From an uncultured Gammaproteobacteria bacterium (GTDB lineage: Bacteria; Pseudomonadota; Gammaproteobacteria; CAWCPV01): a stretch of 64,000 nt of DNA. The translations under genes and the position numbers were made by a program. Below the pieces are notes generated by a model that worked only from the letters and a program-made list of their open reading frames with translations, had not been told where the DNA came from and ran no database searches. This document shows, piece by piece, positions 2,910 through 41,866 of the stretch (within the stretch, counting starts at the first letter, position 1; every line of letters starts with the position of its first letter). Location: assembly GCA_963797555.1 (NCBI GenBank), contig CAWCPV010000014.1, forward strand, positions 352,001-416,000. The letters run 5' to 3'.

Positions 2910-3338
2910 GTCAATGTCACCACCGGCTACAAGCCGGTGGCTTGAGTTGGGCACTGTAAGTGCCGGTTCCGGCTGAAGCCGGCTGCAAGCCACCCGCCCC
3001 AAGGCGGTTCATTGCGACTCCAAGTCGCCCCCCTCAACTACCTGAAACCGATCTTCGGTCTCGGTATGACCCTCGATGTAAGCCTGGATCATGTCGTCCG
3101 TCACGTTGCCCGTGCTACACGCAAAGTAGCCCCGCGCCCACATCCGCTGACCCCAGTATTGCTTGCGCAGCACCGCAAATTCCCGCTGCAGCGAGCTTGC
3201 TTACCGAGACCTGGGGCGGCACCGATACCAGCATGTGCACATGGTCCCGCGCCACCACCCCCGAGAGGATCTCCACCCCCATGCCCGAGCACATCTGCTT
3301 CACCAACTCGCGCAGCCTCTGCCCAACGTCGCCGCGCA
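2910..3338 (-). mobile_element. tnpA: IS200/IS605 tnpA remnant (3' part and right end)
   Basis: HUH motif DHVHML; shifted frame WARGYFACSTG..IQAYIE; subterminal hairpin CCACCGGCT-ACA-AGCCGGTGG at 2920-2940. Confidence 0.8.
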
Positions 3339-4161
3339 ACAGGTAACGCGAGTAGTAGTCGATGACGGTGACCGCGTACCACCACCCGTGTCCCGGGATG
3401 TGCAGATAAGTGACATCGGCCTGCCACAGCTCGTTCGGCTTGGAGGGCAGCAGCTCGAACAGACGCGCCGCCTGATACAGTGCCGCTTCGCGTACCCGGC
3501 GCTTTTGCAACAGCCCGGCGGCCTTGAACACCCGGTAGACCACCTTGTTGCTCACTGCCAAACCCTGGCGACGCGCGACTACTGCGATACGCTTGTATCC
3601 CCACCACGGGTAGCGTTCGGCCAGGGCTCTTCAGGCACTGGCTTCGGCTTGCGCCCAGGCTTTTTGGGCTCGGTGGCTCGCCCTGCATACCACACCGAGC
3701 GGGCAATGCCCAAGGCTCTCAGCACCCCAGAGAGCCGAGCCACAGGATTCGCCGCGCAGGCCTCCGTGACCATGGTGCGCACCGCCTCGGTCAGCTCGAG
3801 CCGCCCGAGAGTTGTTTTAAAATCCGGTTGGCGATGGTGAGCTCGCCGATGACCTGCTCGCGCTCAGCCAGTGCCGACTTCAACTGCCTCAACTCCTTGG
3901 CCTGCTCCCGGTCGGCACCCCGCCCGGCCAGCGCCTGCCTGCCGGCGCTGAGAAACTCATCACGCCTGCGGTACAGCGTCTGCTCCGAGACCCCGGCACG
4001 CCGTGCGATCTGCGCTGCCGGCTCTTCCTTGCTCAACAGCCGCATTACAAGCTGCGAACGCTCTCCAGCACTCAACGTGGACTTCTTGGCCATCTCCGCT
4101 CCCTCTGCACGACAGTTCAAGTATCACTTCTCTTCGTGTCCAGAGAAATCGGAGCTATACA
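3339..4161 (-). mobile_element. IS3-family remnant: IRL, orfA (3791-4120) and truncated orfB
   Basis: end reads TGTATAGCTCCGATTTCTCTGGACAC; HTH orfA; orfB PNELWQADVTY..VIDYYSRY, truncated and joined to IS200. Confidence 0.85.
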
Positions 4162-4350
4162 CCAGGCCCTGGAGCAGAGGAGTGCGACCCGATGAGCCTC
4201 AAGACCCGAGTGGCGCGCCTTGAGGCGGCAGCAGCCCAGAGCGTTGAGCAGTGGCTGCGTAACCGTTCAGACCCTCCCACCAGTTGATCGATGCGTTAAG
4301 AGCGCGTCCAGCGCAGCAGAGCCGCTCGGCTTGTCGTACACTCCCGGCTC

Positions 4351-5069
4351 ATGGATCAAGAGCCCTCTATTCCGCAGGCGATCACGGCGAGCGGCCGGAG
4401 CTTTACCGAAGAGGAGATCTCCGCCATCGTCCGAATGGTGTCGATGTGCGTGGGCCTGAGTCGTTTTGAGCTGGCGCAGACCATCTGTGAGCTGCTGGGG
4501 TGGAGACGGGACAACGGAGCCCTGAAGTCCCGCGAGTGTCGGGATCTACTGGAGCGGTTGGAAGCTCGGGGGGATCTGGGGCTTCCCGCCAAGCGCACGG
4601 GCAGGCCCAAGGGGCGGCGCACCTGCACTGCGCAGACCGATCGGGGCGAACGCCGCGGCGAGATTGCCGGTGCGCTGCAGGAGGTGGCCCCGGTGGAGCT
4701 TCAGTTAGTGCGCCAGGCCGAGGGACGGGCATTGTGGCGCGAGCTTCTCGCGCGCTATCACTACTTGGGCTATGCCACACCCTTTGGGGCCCAGTTGGTC
4801 TATCTCATCCGCTCCCAGCGCCGGGAGGGGGAGGTGTTGGGCGGGCTCACCTACACCAGCCCGGCCTGGCGCATGCAGGCCCGCGATGCGTGGATCGGCT
4901 GCGCTTTGCCGGGACCTGCTACCGGGCGGCCAACTGGTGCGAGGTGGGCGAGACCAGCGGACGCGGGCGCATGGACCGTGCGCACCAACGCCATGGCAGA
5001 GCGATAAAGCGGGTCTTCCTCTACGCTCTGCACCCGCAGGCCAGAGAGCGCCTGCGCGGTGAGCGCTGA
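4351..5069 (+). pseudogene. DUF4338 (DruA-like) protein with internal deletion and frameshift
   Basis: YHYLGY, GAQLVYLI, AWRMQARDAWIG, then shifted RFAGTCYRAANW..GRGRMDR; middle segment present in 39987-40859 is missing. Confidence 0.85.
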
Positions 5070-5071
5070 AC

Positions 5072-6640
5072 TCAAGCGGGCGCAGGAAGCGGCGGTGCCT
5101 CAAAGCCGCGGCGTCGGTGGGCGAGGACATCTCTGAGATAGCACAGCGGGGAGCTCAATCGCAGCCGAGAAGTCTCGATCACACTGGCGAGCAGCGCCAG
5201 CGCCCGGCTGCCTTGTTCGCTGCGGGTCCCCTGGCTGATGCGACGCAGAATCACCCAGTGACGCAGCGCCCGCTCCGCCACGTTGTTGGTCAGCGGCAGC
5301 TGAGGCTCATCCAACACCCGGAAGATCGCCCCCCAGTCGTTGAGCAGCTCCTTGCCCAGCGCCTGGGCCTTGTCATAAGGGCAGCAGCTCATGCGTTCAC
5401 ACAGGGCCGTGAGCTCGTTGAGCTCGCCCGGGTGGGCTTGCCGCAGGGAGCCGCCCGGTCCCTCGCGGGCGTGATAGACGGCCTGCATCAGCGCATCGAG
5501 CAGGTCATAGACCGCCTGGCCGTAGCCCTGGAGGGTGGGCGAGAGGCAATCCCTCAGGCCCCGGGCCTTGCGAATGAGATGCGCCCAGCAACGCAGGCGC
5601 TTGGCATAGTCCCGATAGACCTGGTACCCATCGCTCATCAGATAGCCGCAGAAGAGATCCTCGATGAGGTTCTGAAACATCTCTTTGGCGCGAGAGCCGA
5701 CCAAGAACAGCGCCGTCGAGGCCGAGATGAACACCCATAACCACAAGGGCTCTCCCCATTGCTTGTGCGGTGTCTCATCGGCATGCATGAGGGCCGCTTC
5801 CAGCAACTGGGTCACCAGCTCATCCTCGACCGGCTCGCAGGCACGGGCGGTCTCCATCACGCATTGGTGGAGGGTGCCGATGCCGAGCGCCAGCCCAAAC
5901 ACCTCGTGCAGGAACTCCCGGACCAGGCGGATGGACAGGCGCATCCGAAACCGCAGCCAGACGATGAAGGCGCACAATCCCGGCCCCACCAGGCGCCACT
6001 CGCCAAGCTCCACCCCTCGCCAGCATCCCAAGTGCTCGGGCGCGCGGTGCGGCGCCTGCCGGGTCTCATGACCACAGTCGCAACGGCTCTGGTAGTATAC
6101 CTGCCGCGTGCAGGTCAGGCGCAGCCCCGGCGCCTGCTCATCGCCAAAGACCAAGTCCAGCCTATCAAAGGCGGTGTAGGGCTTCGCCTGCTCAGGATTG
6201 AGCGCCCCACCACACAGCGCACAACTTCCCGGCCGATGATGGTCCCAATCGGTGACTGTCAGCTTCTGGGCGCGCCCGAATCCCTGGGAGCCAGGCTGCC
6301 GGCCCGCTCGGCGCTGCGTCCCTGAGGTCTTGCCACTCGTGTCCTTTGCGCCCTTCTGGCCGCCAGCCCCGGGGAGGCCATCCTCCTCAGAACGGCTCTT
6401 GGCCTCCTCGTCCTCAGGACCGGCGTCGGCCTCTTCGTCCTCCCGCGCACGCAGCCAGGGGTCTTGACTGCTCGGCGGACGAGAGCTATTGGAGGGACTC
6501 TGATTGAGCCGCTCCCACGCTTCCTTGAGATCCTGCAGCAGGCGGATGCTCAGCGCTGCCAGCGCATCGGGATCCTTCTGCCTCAGCTCCAGAATGCGCT
6601 CCTCGCTGAGCTGACGAAGGTCGTGCTCCTTGAGCACCAT
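5072..6640 (-). CDS. IS66 family transposase
   Basis: NSSRPPS, Cys zinc-finger, ADET, SDGY, RCWAHLIR and TNNVAERALR motifs. Confidence 0.93.
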   Translation of the reverse strand: MVLKEHDLRQLSEERILELRQKDPDALAALSIRLLQDLKEAWERLNQSPSNSSRPPSSQDPWLRAREDEEADAGPEDEEAKSRSEEDGLPGAGGQKGAKDTSGKTSGTQRRAGRQPGSQGFGRAQKLTVTDWDHHRPGSCALCGGALNPEQAKPYTAFDRLDLVFGDEQAPGLRLTCTRQVYYQSRCDCGHETRQAPHRAPEHLGCWRGVELGEWRLVGPGLCAFIVWLRFRMRLSIRLVREFLHEVFGLALGIGTLHQCVMETARACEPVEDELVTQLLEAALMHADETPHKQWGEPLWLWVFISASTALFLVGSRAKEMFQNLIEDLFCGYLMSDGYQVYRDYAKRLRCWAHLIRKARGLRDCLSPTLQGYGQAVYDLLDALMQAVYHAREGPGGSLRQAHPGELNELTALCERMSCCPYDKAQALGKELLNDWGAIFRVLDEPQLPLTNNVAERALRHWVILRRISQGTRSEQGSRALALLASVIETSRLRLSSPLCYLRDVLAHRRRGFEAPPLPAPA

Positions 6641-7031
6641 GATTGTGTGTGACAGTGAGGTCGAGGAACATCCTGCCAAGGGCACCCAACTGTCTCACGC
6701 TGGAACCGTTTTGTCCAGCCCTCCGGGTCAAAATATTCCAGGGGGGTGAACGGTTACGTGGCTGCGGTCACTTAGCGTGGAGGAGTTGGAGCGCCACGTC
6801 GCCGAACTCCACGCACAGATAAGCGATGAGGAATTCGCTGCGGGCATCGAAGAGCTGCGCAGAGGGACAGGGGCGTCCGGTACGCCGCTGAGCGAGGCGT
6901 CCATCGAGCTGCTGGTCCAGAACCGCGCGAAACGGCGTGGGCAGCGATGAGCGGGGATCGCACCCTCGACGGACGGTGCGGTGCCCGTGCTCCTAGGCCG
7001 TTGCGCGGCTGGACCGAAGCGTTATCCCTAG

Positions 7032-8072: not shown

Positions 8073-8505
8073 TCCCTGAGGTAAGCCCCGGCTTTGCCGG
8101 GGGACTCGCCGAGGTTTGACCTATACGACGGTCGTCGTGAATCTCCAATCTCCGCCAAGAGAAGGGGATTCACGATGAAAGAGCACCAGAGTCCGAGCCA
8201 CACGAAGTGCGACTGTAAGTATCATGTGGTATTCATCGCGAAGCGCAGGAAGAAGCAGATCTTCGGGGCGCTGCGCCGCCACCTGGACAGATCTTCCAGG
8301 AGTTGGCGGGCCACAAGGTGCCCACAGTCGGCTTAAGATGAGGCGATGGTGAGGGCCTACATCCGGAACCAAGACCAACAGGACGAGCGCTACGATCATC
8401 TGAGGCTGGGGACGTAGGTCCAGCCGCCTTGGGCGGCTCCCGGTGTTATGGCGCCTTTGAGGCGCTCGCCCAATAAGCCCCCGGCTTCGCCGGGGGTGAG
8501 TTAAC
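8073..8505 (+). mobile_element. internally deleted IS200 (copy 1)
   Basis: terminal hairpins CCCCGGC..GCCGGGG; tnpA start CKYHVVFI and end AYIRNQ; HUH region deleted; preceded by TAAC and ends in TAAC. Confidence 0.9.
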
Positions 8506-36093: not shown

Positions 36094-36452
36094 TGAGGGC
36101 CTGATGCCCGAGAAGGCACCATTCTGCCGTCTCTGAAAGGCTAAGGTTCAGTGCGGGGCTCCCCAGGCAGGCCCGCACAGTTCCCGGCGGAGCAGCGGAA
36201 CAGGCGGGCTCTCGCATCGATCGAAGGGCATGCCAAACGCTACCACCAAGGCCGCGTACCCGCGAGCAAGGGAGACGCGCTGTCCTGATTGCCCGCTAGA
36301 CGAAGAGGGCCTCACCGTCCATTGCGTGATTCATTCTCGGAGCGAGCGCGGAAGCCCGTTGCCGGATGTAGCAATCCGACTGCACGTGACCCCCTGGGTC
36401 AGTGTTGCTTCGTCCTCAGTCAGTTCTTTCCGACAATCTCGCCCGCAGGCTA

Positions 36453-37613
36453 GTGTAGTGCTTCATTCTGTTTAGAACTTAAACGTGCGTTGGCGCGGAT
36501 GACCTTCTGCAGGATGTCCTTAGCCTTGGCGGTCCAGATGAAGGGTTTGGGATTGGCGTTGTGGGCATCGACATAGCGGTTGATGGCATGGATCAACTCG
36601 GGGACGCTTCGAAACACGCCACGGCGCAACCGATCCACAGTCAGGTCGCGGAAGAATCGCTCGACCATGTTCAACCAGGATGCTGAGGTGGGCGTGAAAT
36701 GGATGTGGAAACGCGGGTGTTTTCCCAGCCATTTCTGAACGTTGGGATGTTTGTGGGTGGCGTAGTTGTCGCAGACCAAGTGCAGTTCCTTGTCCTTGGG
36801 CGTCTCGCGGTCGATTTGGCGCAGGAAGGTGAGCCACTCCGTGTGGCGATGGTGCGGCTCGCAGCGGGCAATCACGGAACCCTCCAAGGTGTTCAGGGCA
36901 GCAAACAGTGTCGTGGTGCCATGGCGCTTGTAGTCATGGGTCATGGTCGCAGCCCGCCCCTTCTTCAGCGGCAGGCCAGGTTGGGTACGATCCAGCGCCT
37001 GAACCTGACTCTTCTCGTCGCAGCACAACACCAAAGCATGCTCCGGGGGGGACAGATACAGCCCGACGATGTCCTCCAACTTCTCGGTGAATTTCGGGTC
37101 GCGCGATACCTTGAAGGATTCGACACGATGCGGCTTCAGCCCATGGGCATGCCACACGCGCAGCACCGTGGTGTCGCTCACTCCCATTTCCTTAGCCAGG
37201 GTCCGCGTACTCCACTGTGTCGCTGCTAAGGGCTGGGTCTGAGTCGTGCGTCGCACGATCTCGGCGGCATCCACCTTGGGCTGACGACCTCCGCGCGGCA
37301 GGTCACACTCGATGGCCGCCAGCCCGCCTTGCGCATAGCGCTCCCGCCAACGCCCAACCTGCACACGCCCAATCTTGAGTTCCGCCGCGATGGCCTTGTT
37401 CTCCATGCCCACCGCCGCCAACAGCACAATGCGCGCTCGGCGGGCCAGCCTCACACTCGTGGTGTTCGAACGCGACACACGCCTCAGGCTCCGCTGTTCT
37501 TCCGCGCTCAGTCGGACCATCGGGGCTACTCGCATCAGTGCTCTCCTGTCTTGGCTTCATAGCCCTGGACAGCGATAGATCATATATGTTCCGTTAATTA
37601 CCAAGCACTACAC
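36453..37613 (-). mobile_element. IS630-family element, copy 1 (transposase 36450-37535)
   Basis: TIRs GTGTAGTGCTT; TA duplication within CTAG; DEKSQ, DNYATH and WLNMVE motifs. Confidence 0.95.
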
Positions 37614-37993: not shown

Positions 37994-38427
37994 GTTAACT
38001 CACCCCCGGCGAAGCCGGGGGCTTATTGGGTGAGCGCCTCAAAGGCGCCATAACACCGGGAGCCGCCCAAGGCGGCTGGACCTACGTCCCCAGCCTCAGA
38101 TGATCGTAGCGCTCGTCCTGTTGGTCTTGGTTCCGGATGTAGGCCCTCACCATCGCCTCATCTTAAGCCGACTGCGGACACCTTGTGGCCCGCCAACTCC
38201 TGGAAGATCTGTCCAGGTGGCGGCGCAGCGCCCCGAAGATCTGCTTCTTCCTGCGCTTCGGGATGAATACCACATGATACTTACAGTCGCACTTCGTGTG
38301 GCTCGGACTCTGGTACTCTTTCATCGTGAATCCCCTTCTCTTGGCGGAGATTGGAGATTCACGACGACCGTCGTATAGGTCAAACCTCGGTGAGTCCCCC
38401 GGCAAAGCCGGGGGCTTACCTCAGGGA
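37994..38427 (-). mobile_element. internally deleted IS200 (copy 4, same deletion as copy 1)
   Basis: near-identical reverse complement of 8073-8505. Confidence 0.92.
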
Positions 38428-38655
38428 GTTATGTAAAAACACAAGGTTGCGGGTCAGAAAGCCGCGTTCGAGGGGGGAAGATCCGCCTGAGCGTCCGCTG
38501 GGAGGCGCGCCGCCCGCGCCTGCGGGCCGCAGCGTGGCGGCCGGCTCCAGGTCTCGAACGGTGACTGGGCCAGCCGCGGTCGCGACAACGGTACCCCAAA
38601 GTGAGTAGTTTGCGATCTAGAGGAGAAAGATCGGCGGGCAGCTTAGCCCATGTCG

Positions 38656-39990
38656 TTATACACATCTCGGGCTCTGTGAGGCCCGTTGTGCGTCCATGGC
38701 GAGCACGAAGTCGCGGGTTCGCTGCAGCCCGATCCACAGGCTTTGCGGACCCGGGAAGCCGTCGCCCTTGCGATTGAGGAAGCCGCCGAAGCTCGCCACC
38801 ATACGCACCATCGCATCGAGCGAGGGGGGTGTCTCAGGCGGGGGCTGGCGCTTGGTGACGATATACACCGCGCGCCATTCCTCCTCGGCGAACACCACGT
38901 TGCAGGGCATCTGCGGGCAGTCGCGCCCGAGCAGGGTGAGGTAGAGCACCCGCCAGGCGATGATGAGGTAGAAGGCGAGCGCGGGCTCCAGGCGTTCGAG
39001 GGTCTCGAGCTGCAGCTTCTCGATGCGGCAGCCGCTTTTGAGGATCTTGAAGAACACCTCGATTTGCCACCGGCAGAGGTACCATTGGAGCTTCTCCAGG
39101 GCCTGCTCGGCGGTCTCGACGGGGAGGCTGGTGAGGAGCAGCCACTCGATGGGCTCCTCGCCCTGGGGCGGGTCCACCTCGCGGGCCAGCACGGCGCTCA
39201 CCTCGATGTCCGCCAGGGTGCGGTCCGAGCGATGCGGGGCCTTGAAAGTGAGGCGTGCGACGCGCAGTTGCTGGTGGATGCGCCGCGCCGGACGCCTAGC
39301 GGTGGCGGGCAGGTCGAATTCGGCCTCGGCCAGCACCGGCGCGCTTGCGAGCCGGGCGCGCTCGGCGCGGATGAGCCACTCGGCGCAGGGCTGCGTGGCG
39401 GCGCGTTCCGCGAGCACCTCGTAGATGTCGGCCTCGCGGTCGGCGACATAGACCAACTGGGTCTCGGGCAGGGACTCGATGAGCTCCGAGACGCGTCGAT
39501 AACCCTCCAGCCAGCGCAGGCTCTCTTTTTCCTCGATGGGCCGGCGGCCCTGCTCCTTGCCCAGACTGCCCGCCTCGCGGGTCCAGCTCCATAGATCCAA
39601 TAGCCCCAAGGGCACCCGCTCGGGGGTCACGGCGAGGGTGGGGTGCAGGTACAATCCACGGCGGGTCTCGTAGTTGAGCGGGCCCAGCCCGACGATGTCG
39701 TTCTTGCCGCTATAGTCCCCTTCCGTGGTGTCTTGGATGCACAGCACCACCGAGTATTCGCGCATACGCTGCTCGGTGCAGGCGTAATGGGGCTCGAGCA
39801 CCGCCTGGGCGGTGACCTGGGGATGGTCGAACAGCCGATAAGCCGCCAAGGTCTCGGCCCAGCCGCCACAGGCGGTGGGAATGCTCTGCATGGGATGGGC
39901 TCCCAGCTTCTCCAGGGTGCGTCGCGCCCGGCGGTTGAGGCGCGCATCACCCAAGTCGATGGCGGCCAGCTCCTCGGCCAGGGCATTCAT
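38656..39990 (-). CDS. IS4 family transposase
   Basis: LGDARL, IQDTT, ADREADIYE, Y..RWQIEVFFKILKSG and LWIGL motifs. Confidence 0.93.
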   Translation of the reverse strand: MNALAEELAAIDLGDARLNRRARRTLEKLGAHPMQSIPTACGGWAETLAAYRLFDHPQVTAQAVLEPHYACTEQRMREYSVVLCIQDTTEGDYSGKNDIVGLGPLNYETRRGLYLHPTLAVTPERVPLGLLDLWSWTREAGSLGKEQGRRPIEEKESLRWLEGYRRVSELIESLPETQLVYVADREADIYEVLAERAATQPCAEWLIRAERARLASAPVLAEAEFDLPATARRPARRIHQQLRVARLTFKAPHRSDRTLADIEVSAVLAREVDPPQGEEPIEWLLLTSLPVETAEQALEKLQWYLCRWQIEVFFKILKSGCRIEKLQLETLERLEPALAFYLIIAWRVLYLTLLGRDCPQMPCNVVFAEEEWRAVYIVTKRQPPPETPPSLDAMVRMVASFGGFLNRKGDGFPGPQSLWIGLQRTRDFVLAMDAQRASQSPRCV

Positions 39991-40859
39991 GCGGCTCCCC
40001 CGAGCGCCCGGCGAAAGCGGCCATCGAGCGGATACACATAGACATCCTTGATGGGCAGCGCCTCACGGTCGAGCTTGCCCCGCCCGGTGGTCTGCCCCAG
40101 ATGATGCCAGTTGGCCGCCCGGTAGCAGGTGCCCGCGAACCGGCCGGCCTCGACAAAGGTCTCCAGCAGCACCGGGCGTACCCCGTAGCGCTCTTCGAAC
40201 TCGCCCGGCACCTGCCGCGCGGCCCGCCCGAGGACCTTGGAGGCCAGGTTCGCCACCCGCACCCACGGCAGAATGAGAAACCGCGCATGGTTCAGCACCT
40301 GCCCCAGGTGCTGCGCACGGCTTGGCGCATCCCAGCCAATCCAGCGGTTGCGCACGCCCACCTTCCAGGCCGCGGCCCCGAAGCCCATGGCCCCCACCAC
40401 ACCCCCGTCCCAGCGAATCAGATAGCGCAGCTGGGCACCGGGCAGCGGCCGGTAGCCCAAATAATGGTACCGGTCGATGAGCCCATTCCACAGCGCCGAG
40501 TCCGCCGGGTCAGCAACCGGCGCCAAGTGCAGACCCTGCAAATCCCGCACTGCGCCCACCACCGGTACCTCAGCGGGCCAATCTTGCGGCTCGCGCGACA
40601 GCCCCTTCCCATTGCCGTTACCGTTGCGCGGCGCCGGCAGCTCGATCCAGCCTGCCCGATGCAGCCGCAGCAGCCCGACTCGACAGCTCATCAGCTTGGG
40701 CCTACCGGCTGCATCGGTCCACCCCAGCACCCGACACACCCGCCGCGCCACCTCGGCTCGCACTCGGGGCTCCGCCAGCCAAGCCTCCCGCCGTATGCTC
40801 TCAAGCTCCCCCGCGCTCAGCACGCGCCCACCCAACCACCTCGGCAACCCCTTCTCCAT
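39987..40859 (-). CDS. DUF4338 (DruA-like) protein
   Basis: YHYLGY, GAQLRYLI, RFLILPWV..NLAS, LLETFV and GTCYRAANW motifs; stop overlaps the transposase ATG (ATGA). Confidence 0.9.
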   Translation of the reverse strand: MEKGLPRWLGGRVLSAGELESIRREAWLAEPRVRAEVARRVCRVLGWTDAAGRPKLMSCRVGLLRLHRAGWIELPAPRNGNGNGKGLSREPQDWPAEVPVVGAVRDLQGLHLAPVADPADSALWNGLIDRYHYLGYRPLPGAQLRYLIRWDGGVVGAMGFGAAAWKVGVRNRWIGWDAPSRAQHLGQVLNHARFLILPWVRVANLASKVLGRAARQVPGEFEERYGVRPVLLETFVEAGRFAGTCYRAANWHHLGQTTGRGKLDREALPIKDVYVYPLDGRFRRALGGAA

Positions 40860-40958
40860 CTGCTCCCCCTCGTCACCTGGTGAACGATGGGGGCATTGAA
40901 TCAGCTTCCGGGGGCTGTGTCCAGAGGGGCAGCAGCCCTAGCTACGGGGAGACGTGTA

Positions 40959-41755
40959 TCCGCCGTAGGGACGGCGGTCACCCGCCGCCCCCGGCACAGA
41001 CCCGGACGTGCAGTTTTTCCGCATCCGGTTCCTCGGTTGTACTCGCTTCCGCGCAGACGGCCACTCGCCGTCTGTTGGCTATTGCCCGCAGTGAGGTTCG
41101 CTTGCGTTCTCCGGCCCGACTCTGTCCGGCGCAAGTTTCCTATACGGGCTGCGTACTTCCGCCAGGTCCTTCCCCTTGTAACGGGCTTTCCCCGTCTCCG
41201 AGTACTATGCCTGGTAAGACTCCCCACCAGCATACGGCGGGCGTTCCCTTTGACAGTACTTCTCCGCCTGCCTGCTCCGAAGTTCCCTTCGTCCACTTAG
41301 GTTCCGGCTTAACCCTGTGTCCGGGTTTCCCCTTCCGTGCCTCAATAGCCGTATACCGTATGACCGAGCTTCCCTCCGGCCAGGAGCCGATGGGGCCTCC
41401 TGGGTTCTCCGACGCCTCTCTTCCTGCATGCCACGGCCTGAGGACTCCGGCGGACCTCCACGCCCTCGCCAAAACGGGCGCTTCGTGTAGCCTTCGGGCA
41501 CGTTAAAACCCTCGGCATCCGCAACAAGCTTATCTCGAAGCTGTACCAGCACTTCAGGGAGCGCGGCCTCCCCTACGGCCTACAGGATACTCTGCCTACG
41601 CTTAGCCCGTCTTGTTCGCAGCCTCTCGGCTACTCCGCCACGGACCCAAGGCTTCGATACGGGTGGGTGGCTAACCCTTATGAAGATGCCTTACGACCTC
41701 TTCTCCCGACAGGGACTCTCACCCTGCAAGAAGCGCCGAGCTTTGCCCAGCGCGA
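40959..41755 (-). ncRNA. ORF-less group II intron (797 nt)
   Basis: domain V GGAACCGGATGCGGAAAAACTGCACGTCCGGGTC and domain VI; 5' TCGCG; EBS1 TAACGT pairs with exon GCGTTA; 1-nt boundary ambiguity. Confidence 0.88.
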
Positions 41756-41866
41756 TAACGCCATGAGCTTAGCCGCTTCGTGTGAACGCCGTCTCTACTT
41801 CACTTCGCTGAACTGCCGATGGACACTCGCGGCTGCGCCTCGAAGCCGTGCGGCTCGGTACGTCGG

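Follow-up and report, generated by a model that had tools for sequence, protein, structure and literature searches.

Two insertion sequences with a DUF4338 gene

The window analysed here is a stretch of 64,000 nucleotides from an uncultured gammaproteobacterium, lying on contig C14 of a 5.35-Mb assembly of 20 contigs. Our subject is a gene of the DUF4338 family (PF14236), which in this window is carried by two insertion sequences of different families, called IS-A and IS-B below. The gene is broken in IS-A and intact in IS-B, and across genomes and metagenomes it shows a genetic link, frequently a physical one too, with transposases of many families. Its product resembles Mom, the DNA-modifying enzyme of phage Mu.

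IS-A (4259-6757, 2499 bp) is an IS66-type insertion sequence, present here in its short form and found in 15 genomic copies with identical ends. Its terminal 11 bases are inverted repeats (GTAACCGTTCA / TGAACGGTTAC), and an 8-bp target site duplication, GTGGCTGC, could be read directly on the left side (4251-4258) and on the right side (6758-6765), the whole reading GTGGCTGC, GTAACCGTTCA...TGAACGGTTAC, GTGGCTGC. Between the ends lie an intact gene for an IS66-family DDE transposase of 537 aa on the minus strand (5072-6685; PF03050, E 7e-39; NF033517, E 1e-64) and, convergent with it on the plus strand, a DUF4338 pseudogene of the Mom-like GNAT type (4351-5069). The stops of the two genes are 2 nt apart. 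The pseudogene matches PF14236 in two frames, with E 2e-18 and 66.9 bits in the N-terminal frame (profile positions 34-117) and with E 7e-5 and 22.6 bits, which is under the gathering score of 27, in the C-terminal frame (187-231). The reading frame is open from 4351 to a junction at 4901/4902, and the motif RFAGTCYRAANW then follows in another frame that ends at a stop at 5067-5069. Measured against the sole intact copy in the genome (protein P0241, 302 aa), 190 nt are missing at this junction. Thus the first-pass annotation, which had described terminal inverted repeats and an 8-bp duplication around both convergent genes as well as an internal deletion in this copy, was correct on the structure of the element.

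The canonical three-gene group of IS66 carries the accessory genes tnpA and tnpB. Neither of them was found in IS-A, in the list of open reading frames or in a Pfam scan of these frames, and no other open reading frame fits between the ends; therefore IS-A is of the single-transposase type. Its DDE transposase, terminal inverted repeats and 8-bp duplication are those of the IS66 family, and we liken it to the single-gene group of this family, which we take to be the one called ISBst12-like. IS-A shares with that group the IS66 DDE transposase, the termini starting with GTAA, the 8-bp duplication and the lack of tnpA and tnpB, and it differs from it in having a Mom-like gene 3' of the transposase gene and convergent with it.

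IS-B (38649-41765, minus strand, 3117 bp) is a Tn5/IS50-like insertion sequence with ends CATGKCGTTATACACATCTC, flanked by the 9-bp target site duplication GGCTAAGCT upstream at 41766-41774 and, read on the minus strand, downstream at 38640-38648. Therefore the limits proposed earlier for this IS4 element are right, and the DUF4338 homolog that had been reported inside it is an intact gene. It encodes P0242, a protein of 290 aa (39987-40859, minus strand; PF14236, E 2.6e-43, 148.7 bits against a gathering score of 27), and lies upstream of the gene for a Tn5-like transposase of 444 aa (38656-39990, minus strand; Tnp_DNA_bind, DDE_Tnp_1 and Dimer_Tnp_Tn5 domains; NF033590, 406 bits). The stop codon of the first gene and the ATG of the second overlap in ATGA. 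The DNA-binding, DDE and dimerisation domains, together with the 9-bp duplication, are those of the IS50/Tn5 group of the IS4 family, and the ends of IS-B contain TTATACACATCT, presumably a part of the Tn5 mosaic end. The difference from IS50/Tn5 is the second gene, which stands upstream, is translationally coupled and has a Mom-like product. Tn5 is regulated by an inhibitor protein and by host Dam methylation, neither of which is encoded as an upstream coupled gene, unlike the Mom-like gene of IS-B.

The IS-B copy of the window is around 800 bp over-long because a group II intron, itself devoid of open reading frames, lies in its upstream terminal repeat, after CATGGCGTTAT (approximately 40965-41754, minus strand). 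Elsewhere in the genome the element measures 2320 bp, again with ends CATGKCGTTATACACATCTC, and in-register duplications of 9 bp flank three of these other copies. The intron has about 790 nt and is in sense orientation relative to the IS-B genes; Rfam supports it with RF02005 (E 7.7e-26 at 41435-41693) and with a domain V/VI match at 40965-41033. Near-identical 800-bp copies of the intron are found at C3:686125 and C4:743173, and a further one at C7:294057 has 93.5% identity. Seven extra bases, GGCGGAT, stand 3' of the intron, which means that the repeat is not cleanly interrupted.

The DUF4338 protein and its likeness to Mom

P0242 and P0241 show 41% identity across 287 columns (E 5e-68), both belong to PF14236, and they have YHYLGY, GAQL.YLI, WIGWD and RFAGTCYRAANW in common, so the two proteins are DUF4338 members and homologous to each other, as had been claimed from the sequence of the window. 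The family is very large. Among 8000 scored candidates of similar length 7977 match it, and 7693 representatives of 50%-identity clusters do so at E<=0.001; most of the members of similar length lie on contigs of 1-3 kb, as is the case for repeats. NCBIfam has no model for either of the two proteins.

The AlphaFold2 model of P0242, built with an alignment of 64 diverse members, has a pLDDT (predicted local distance difference test) of 93.5 and a pTM (predicted template modelling score) of 0.86. Residues 16-68 are modelled as three helices, followed by a linker and by an alpha/beta GNAT domain at about residues 100-280. A 'winged helix' label for the N-terminal domain was tried and dropped, as this domain gave no PDB match at E<=0.001. 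For the whole model Foldseek gave 145 matches to the PDB at E<=1e-3, the top one being Mom of phage Mu (8bv8_B; E 7.8e-6, 194 columns, template modelling score 0.60 on the target). The GNAT/Mom-like fold suggested by the first-pass annotation is therefore the one that is predicted. The domain was also called a GNAT domain in passing in a 2024 paper of the Aravind laboratory (PMC10853773).

Comparisons of profiles point in the same direction. The Pfam model of Mom, PF25680, is matched by 29 of the 64 family members at E<=10 (best 1.7e-6), and every other Pfam family besides DruA is matched by two of the 64 at most. We aligned the family with Mu Mom by means of hhalign (E 0.025) and compared the Mom residues H48/Y49, R101, S114, D139, R141 and Y149 (231-aa numbering). 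H48/Y49, S114, D139 and Y149 stand opposite H132/Y133, S207, E237 and Y246; across the 64 sequences H132 never varies, and conservation of S207 and Y246 reaches at least 90%. R141 adjoins a conserved arginine of the DUF4338 family and does not coincide with it. Two reports (PMC13219725; 10.1101/861617) describe the aligned Mom residues as functionally important and needed for activity, and according to the first of them Mom takes glycine from Gly-tRNA(Gly) and attaches it to N6 of adenine in double-stranded DNA.

Judging from the model and from these alignments, the GNAT domain of DUF4338 is a distant relative of Mu Mom, and it appears to be a conserved and probably active enzyme. The likeness consists of the GNAT fold, the top structural match, the cross-matches of hidden Markov models at the family level and the aligned His-Tyr, Ser, acidic and Tyr positions; furthermore, Mu is itself a transposing element, like the carriers of DUF4338. 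The DUF4338 protein differs from Mom in its extra N-terminal domain of three helices and in its context, which is not that of a phage and in which DDE transposases are its neighbours or fusion partners.

Below Mom, nearly all of the Foldseek matches listed are ordinary GNAT acyltransferases of proteins or small molecules, for example RimI, Naa50 and SpeG. The product might thus be a protein acetyltransferase, which would acetylate the transposase or a host protein of DNA architecture and so tune the assembly of the transpososome, and a fusion of the two proteins would then bring enzyme and substrate together. However, the sequence cross-matches reach the Mom family and no other acetyltransferase family, and the conserved residues are those important in Mom, so that we regard a protein substrate of this kind as unlikely. 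A complex prediction for the Tn5-like transposase and the DUF4338 protein scored 0.00; it was run without controls and carries no weight either way. Neither the protein nor the family profile found anything meaningful among PDB sequences (best E 0.2 and 1.9), and residues 1-98 found only unnamed fragment clusters in the ESM Atlas.

Association with transposases in genomes and metagenomes

In a census of one genome per species, carried out with a pattern taken from the family alignment, we found at least 585 loci and analysed the best 80. These are the top matches to the IS-B protein, which biases the sample towards the IS-B branch; by accession prefix they represent 73 assemblies, and record titles and tree labels assign them to at least 14 phyla, one archaeon included. 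The neighbours were typed by tblastn against a panel of transposases, by BLAST clustering and by Pfam and NCBIfam scans of representatives. A DDE transposase gene adjoins DUF4338 in 74 of the best 80 loci, on the same strand in all 74 and mostly less than 130 bp away, so the neighbourhoods of the family agree with what the window had suggested. IS66-type partners are the most frequent (56 loci: 46 upstream of DUF4338, 9 downstream and 1 on both sides), followed by Tn5-type partners (11 loci: 7 upstream, 4 downstream), other DDE_Tnp_1/IS4 partners (4 loci: 2 upstream, 2 on both sides) and ISKra4 partners (3 loci, all downstream). No partner was found in the remaining 6 of the best 80, one of which is a contig of 898 bp.

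The metagenome set consisted of 80 relatives of the IS-A protein, whose neighbours were typed with the transposase panel (tblastn) and with NCBIfam scans of cluster representatives. Here ISKra4-type partners were found at 19 loci (12 by the panel and 7 by membership of a cluster whose representative was typed), Tn5-type at 12, IS66-type at 10, IS630 at 3, IS4 at 2 and ISAs1 at 1. The neighbour at two further loci is a large serine recombinase (L174:2886-5009 and L167:1099-3099), and the remaining 31 loci are untyped, beside ordinary genes or on short contigs. At the two recombinase loci the DUF4338 gene is followed by a large serine recombinase of around 700 aa in place of the DDE transposase. 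The idea that an accessory gene of this kind occurs in two unrelated DDE families is thus borne out as far as it goes, and it understated the range, since at least six transposase families are partners.

The association is also physical. Besides the members of ordinary length, 1488 longer proteins match the family at E<=0.001, and the 120 fusions listed among them mostly join PF14236 to Tn5 domains or to PF03050. The DUF4338 domain is N-terminal in 89 of these 120 and C-terminal in 31, and the motif YxAxNW is kept in all 120. On a plasmid of Thiodictyon, DUF4338 is fused to an ISAs1 transposase, and the same plasmid carries an unfused DUF4338 gene with an IS4 transposase, the two being separated by an IS91-type insertion; this unfused pair is located between two fragments annotated as DUF2235.

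In order to compare the history of the gene with that of its partners, we used a maximum-likelihood tree of 78 DUF4338 proteins, made by a quick method with SH-aLRT (Shimodaira-Hasegawa-like approximate likelihood ratio test) supports only. The partner labels need 7 changes on this tree, against a mean of 18.2 when the labels are shuffled, and none of the 200 shuffles was as low as 7. Therefore gene and partner have evolved together, with several changes of partner along the way, and the comparison of trees proposed at the outset shows the partner families clustered and yet repeatedly swapped. The tree does not follow taxonomy: near-identical proteins are found in different phyla and in the archaeon.

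The Pfam family owes its name to DruA of Druantia type I, which belongs to PF14236 as well, and the gene could in principle be a remnant or satellite of that defence system, picked up by chance and without a role for the element. We consider this extremely improbable. The PADLOC models of DruA (PDLC00001/00002) match only weakly, with E from 3e-4 to 2e-5 over some 50 residues, and the gene is found together with a transposase in the 74 loci described above. The MZB/DUF1998 domain (PF09369), which we take to be part of DruE, has only two matches in the genome, at C20:71548 and C4:602064, neither of them beside any DUF4338 copy, which agrees with the earlier statement that no Druantia partner genes are recognisable. 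Both DUF4338 genes of the window stand alone with a transposase inside terminal repeats and not in a Druantia operon, DruB to DruD being outside the models searched. The IS-borne proteins also differ from DruA in forming a very large branch of their own and in lying within inverted repeats and target site duplications. We thus read the DUF4338 gene as an accessory gene that is built into insertion sequences, and not as a Druantia remnant or a fragment of a defence island. As for the match on C4 (602064-602303), it lies in an open frame of 1971 aa that may encode a defence helicase of the YprA type, 39 kb from the nearest IS-A copy.

Decay of the IS-A gene and the possible role of the enzyme

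IS-A is an odd member of this association. Among 300 genomes of the same phylum the nearest relatives of its transposase are 44-47% identical over near-full length, and in the 1.5-kb flanks of these relatives DUF4338 was found at none of the 16 loci in 10 genomes, fragments included. The convergent arrangement of IS-A occurs at none of the 74 genome loci and at none of the 34 metagenome loci with a recorded partner strand. Furthermore, the IS-A DUF4338 protein nests (SH-aLRT 99%) among the partners of other IS66-type and of ISKra4 transposases. Therefore it looks as if a single-gene IS66 element had captured the module separately and recently, giving rise to IS-A. A search for IS-A DNA in 30 genomes of the same class gave short and weak matches only.

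All 15 genomic copies of IS-A with both ends retain the DUF4338 gene or a remnant of it, so other copies of the element do not lack the gene, a lack which the first-pass annotation had named as evidence against its reading. Nevertheless, the gene is in decay. Eight copies are of the short form with the 190-nt deletion (2499-2509 bp; one short copy has a further deletion, in the transposase gene, and measures 1713 bp), six are of a long form in which an additional T shifts the frame in the codons of the WIG motif (2690-2691 bp), and only one long copy, at C3:703775-706461 (2687 bp), has the intact gene for P0241. Thus one of two inactivating lesions is present in 14 of the 15 copies, and the element does not maintain the gene in cis; this speaks against a role in transposition that is both essential and cis-acting. 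At the deletion GGATCGGCTG is followed directly by CGCTTTGCC, without the extra T; therefore the short form goes back to the intact form and arose separately from the frameshift. Flanking repeats of their own are found in 11 of the 15 copies, 8-bp in eight and 9-bp in three, or by form in 7 of the 8 short copies, 3 of the 6 frameshifted ones and the single intact one.

The three forms are not confined to this assembly. We found all of them in public contigs from four runs of one study, which are possibly runs of the source sample: the deletion junction in three runs, the extra T in two, and in one, where the depth was low, the form without it. An assembly error as the origin of the extra T was considered and rejected, as the forms with and without it both occur in separately assembled public contigs. 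A single public contig of depth 6.7 (L132:2318) has the form with the extra T and lacks one base 181 nt downstream, so that the frame would be regained after around 60 out-of-frame codons.

Two further observations concern the IS-A copies. On contig C7 a short copy (181758-184258) and a long one (198825-201514) lie in opposite orientation with their flanking 8-mers swapped (gtacgcta / ctcatcga), which indicates an inversion of about 17 kb between the two copies by recombination. Six of the 15 copies have private changes within a 20-nt stretch of the transposase gene, GAGCTCGTTGAGCTC (window 5405-5425), namely five frameshifting indels and one substitution. Another GAGCTC in IS-A is invariant among the copies, and no indel at the GAGCTCGTTGAGCTC site was present in the public contigs examined. 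This variation is either a mutational hot spot or a systematic error of long reads, perhaps at a modified motif.

The situation of IS-B is the opposite one, since its type of gene is open in all 8 copies that match over the full length at 99-100% identity. A frameshift in the upstream overlapping gene of IS-B is expected to disturb the translation of the transposase, and this may explain its retention, whereas the IS-A gene lies 3' of the transposase gene and its loss looks to leave transposase expression unaffected. One genome thus offers a natural experiment, in which the uncoupled gene was broken in 14 of the 15 IS-A copies and the coupled gene of IS-B was kept.

Our best explanation, to which we give a probability of roughly 45%, is that the gene encodes an accessory enzyme of insertion sequences that would modify a nucleic acid and thereby modulate transposition, preferably as a portable governor of the element. 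We infer that the enzyme is active, transfers an acyl or aminoacyl group and so marks a nucleic acid, and adenines in or near the DNA of the element, or in its target DNA, would be the most likely site of the mark. The mark would modulate transposition and not contribute to the cutting and joining steps. Cut-and-paste types with differing reaction details are among the partner families, and therefore the enzyme is unlikely to act in strand cleavage or transfer. In a generic version it would provide a service, the marked DNA (or other nucleic acid) altering the binding or the expression of the transposase or shielding the DNA. In the governor version the enzyme would restrain the element, and its loss would release it.

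We prefer this second version for three reasons. The insertion sequences IS10 and IS50 are restrained by host Dam methylation, which acts at N6 of adenine, and by analogy with Mom the same atom would be used here; two independent null alleles dominate IS-A, where the gene is uncoupled; and elsewhere fusion or coupling means that any transposase produced comes with the enzyme. In its most specific shape this would be an epigenetic control carried by the insertion sequence itself: an acyl or aminoacyl mark at N6 of adenine on the ends or on the promoter would block the transposase until replication leaves the DNA half-marked, and elements losing the enzyme, as IS-A did twice, would escape and multiply. 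As a whole this proposal is rather unlikely to be right. If it were, it would be a replication-coupled control in the style of Dam that works in any host, and its chemistry would also suggest a role for DruA in Druantia type I.

Several points weigh against the explanation that we prefer. The governor idea rests on one genome, and the function could be provided in trans by the single intact IS-A copy or by the IS-B protein with its 41% identity. The SNPs (single-nucleotide polymorphisms) at alignment columns 286, 328 and 560 are common to long and short forms of IS-A, which suggests gene conversion among the copies, and so the lesions may have spread by conversion after insertion. Regarding the protein, R101, which is essential in Mom, falls in a gap of the hhalign alignment and has no partner. 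P0242 itself matches DruA only and not PF25680 (gathering score 27.1 bits), on which its relatives match weakly and Mu Mom scores 253 bits. A further difference is an insertion like a helix-turn-helix near the C-terminus, essential in Mom (PMC13219725); it is not seen in the secondary structure, the level compared, of the P0242 model, where only strands and one short helix come after Y246. The margin of Mom over ordinary GNATs in Foldseek is small, which leaves room for a protein or small molecule as the substrate. Finally, the N-terminal domain modelled alone (pLDDT 78.3) has no PDB match at E<=0.001, and that it binds DNA is an assumption.

The enzyme could also serve as anti-restriction or anti-defence cargo: by modifying DNA it would protect the element, or the replicon on which it arrives in a new cell, from the nucleases of the host, to the benefit of horizontal spread, and the gene, useless once the element is resident, would then decay. 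This agrees with Mom being the top structural match, as the role of Mom is the evasion of restriction (PMC13219725), with the decay in 14 of the 15 resident IS-A copies, which fits a function needed on arrival only, and with the disregard of the DUF4338 tree for taxonomy, which means that the elements move between hosts. Yet we found the gene in none of 50,697 phage records and in 2 of 72,556 plasmid records, both collections being biased, and a short insertion sequence cannot shield a whole incoming replicon unless its enzyme acts genome-wide. The frequent fusions to transposases and the ATGA coupling point instead to an action at the site of the transposase, and the eight intact IS-B-type genes stay open in the same genome. 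We therefore hold this role to be doubtful.

Null alleles dominating IS-A could also be accounted for by toxicity. A GNAT toxin, similar to those that acetylate charged tRNA, would make the element addictive, its loss or silencing harming the cell. Mom uses charged tRNA, a trait that one report relates to GNAT toxins (PMC13219725), and another calls Mom toxic when expressed (10.1101/861617). This explanation is nevertheless very unlikely, because the listing of open reading frames has no antitoxin-sized frame within the terminal repeats of IS-A or IS-B, eight intact IS-B copies are tolerated, and a toxin fused to a transposase would be hard to regulate.

The usual picture of an insertion sequence is that of a transposase and its ends. 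Against this background, at least six transposase families in at least 14 phyla are accompanied by a conserved enzyme from a lineage of DNA modifiers, its 50%-identity clusters numbering in the thousands. If the enzyme marks DNA, this would be base modification encoded by transposons, a new layer in the control of transposition, and it would give DruA a concrete chemistry that can be tested. The databases already show the fused architectures, and one of them has the name 'DUF4338/transposase Tn5 family protein'. In the literature searched we found nothing that links DUF4338 or Mom-like enzymes to insertion sequences, no paper on transposons among those naming DUF4338, and no described function of DruA in Druantia, a preprint on YprA naming Druantia without discussing DruA; an earlier mention in older surveys of Mom-like enzymes is possible. 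What is new here is the contrast within one genome between the decayed, uncoupled gene of IS-A and the intact, coupled gene of IS-B, together with the convergent arrangement in IS-A, the finding that the clade of the IS-A transposase is normally without a DUF4338 gene, and the negative structural result for the N-terminal domain.

Regarding the rest of the window, it contains many more transposase genes and fragments. HTH_Tnp_1, rve and Y1_Tnp domains are found at 3115-4120, and among the transposase genes and fragments there is a candidate open reading frame of 361 aa at 36450-37535. A repeat of around 430 bp, present at 38000-38431 and at 8094-8336, has more than 20 copies in the genome and contains an open reading frame of 80 aa, which by eye resembles the start of a Y1 transposase of the IS200/IS605 type.

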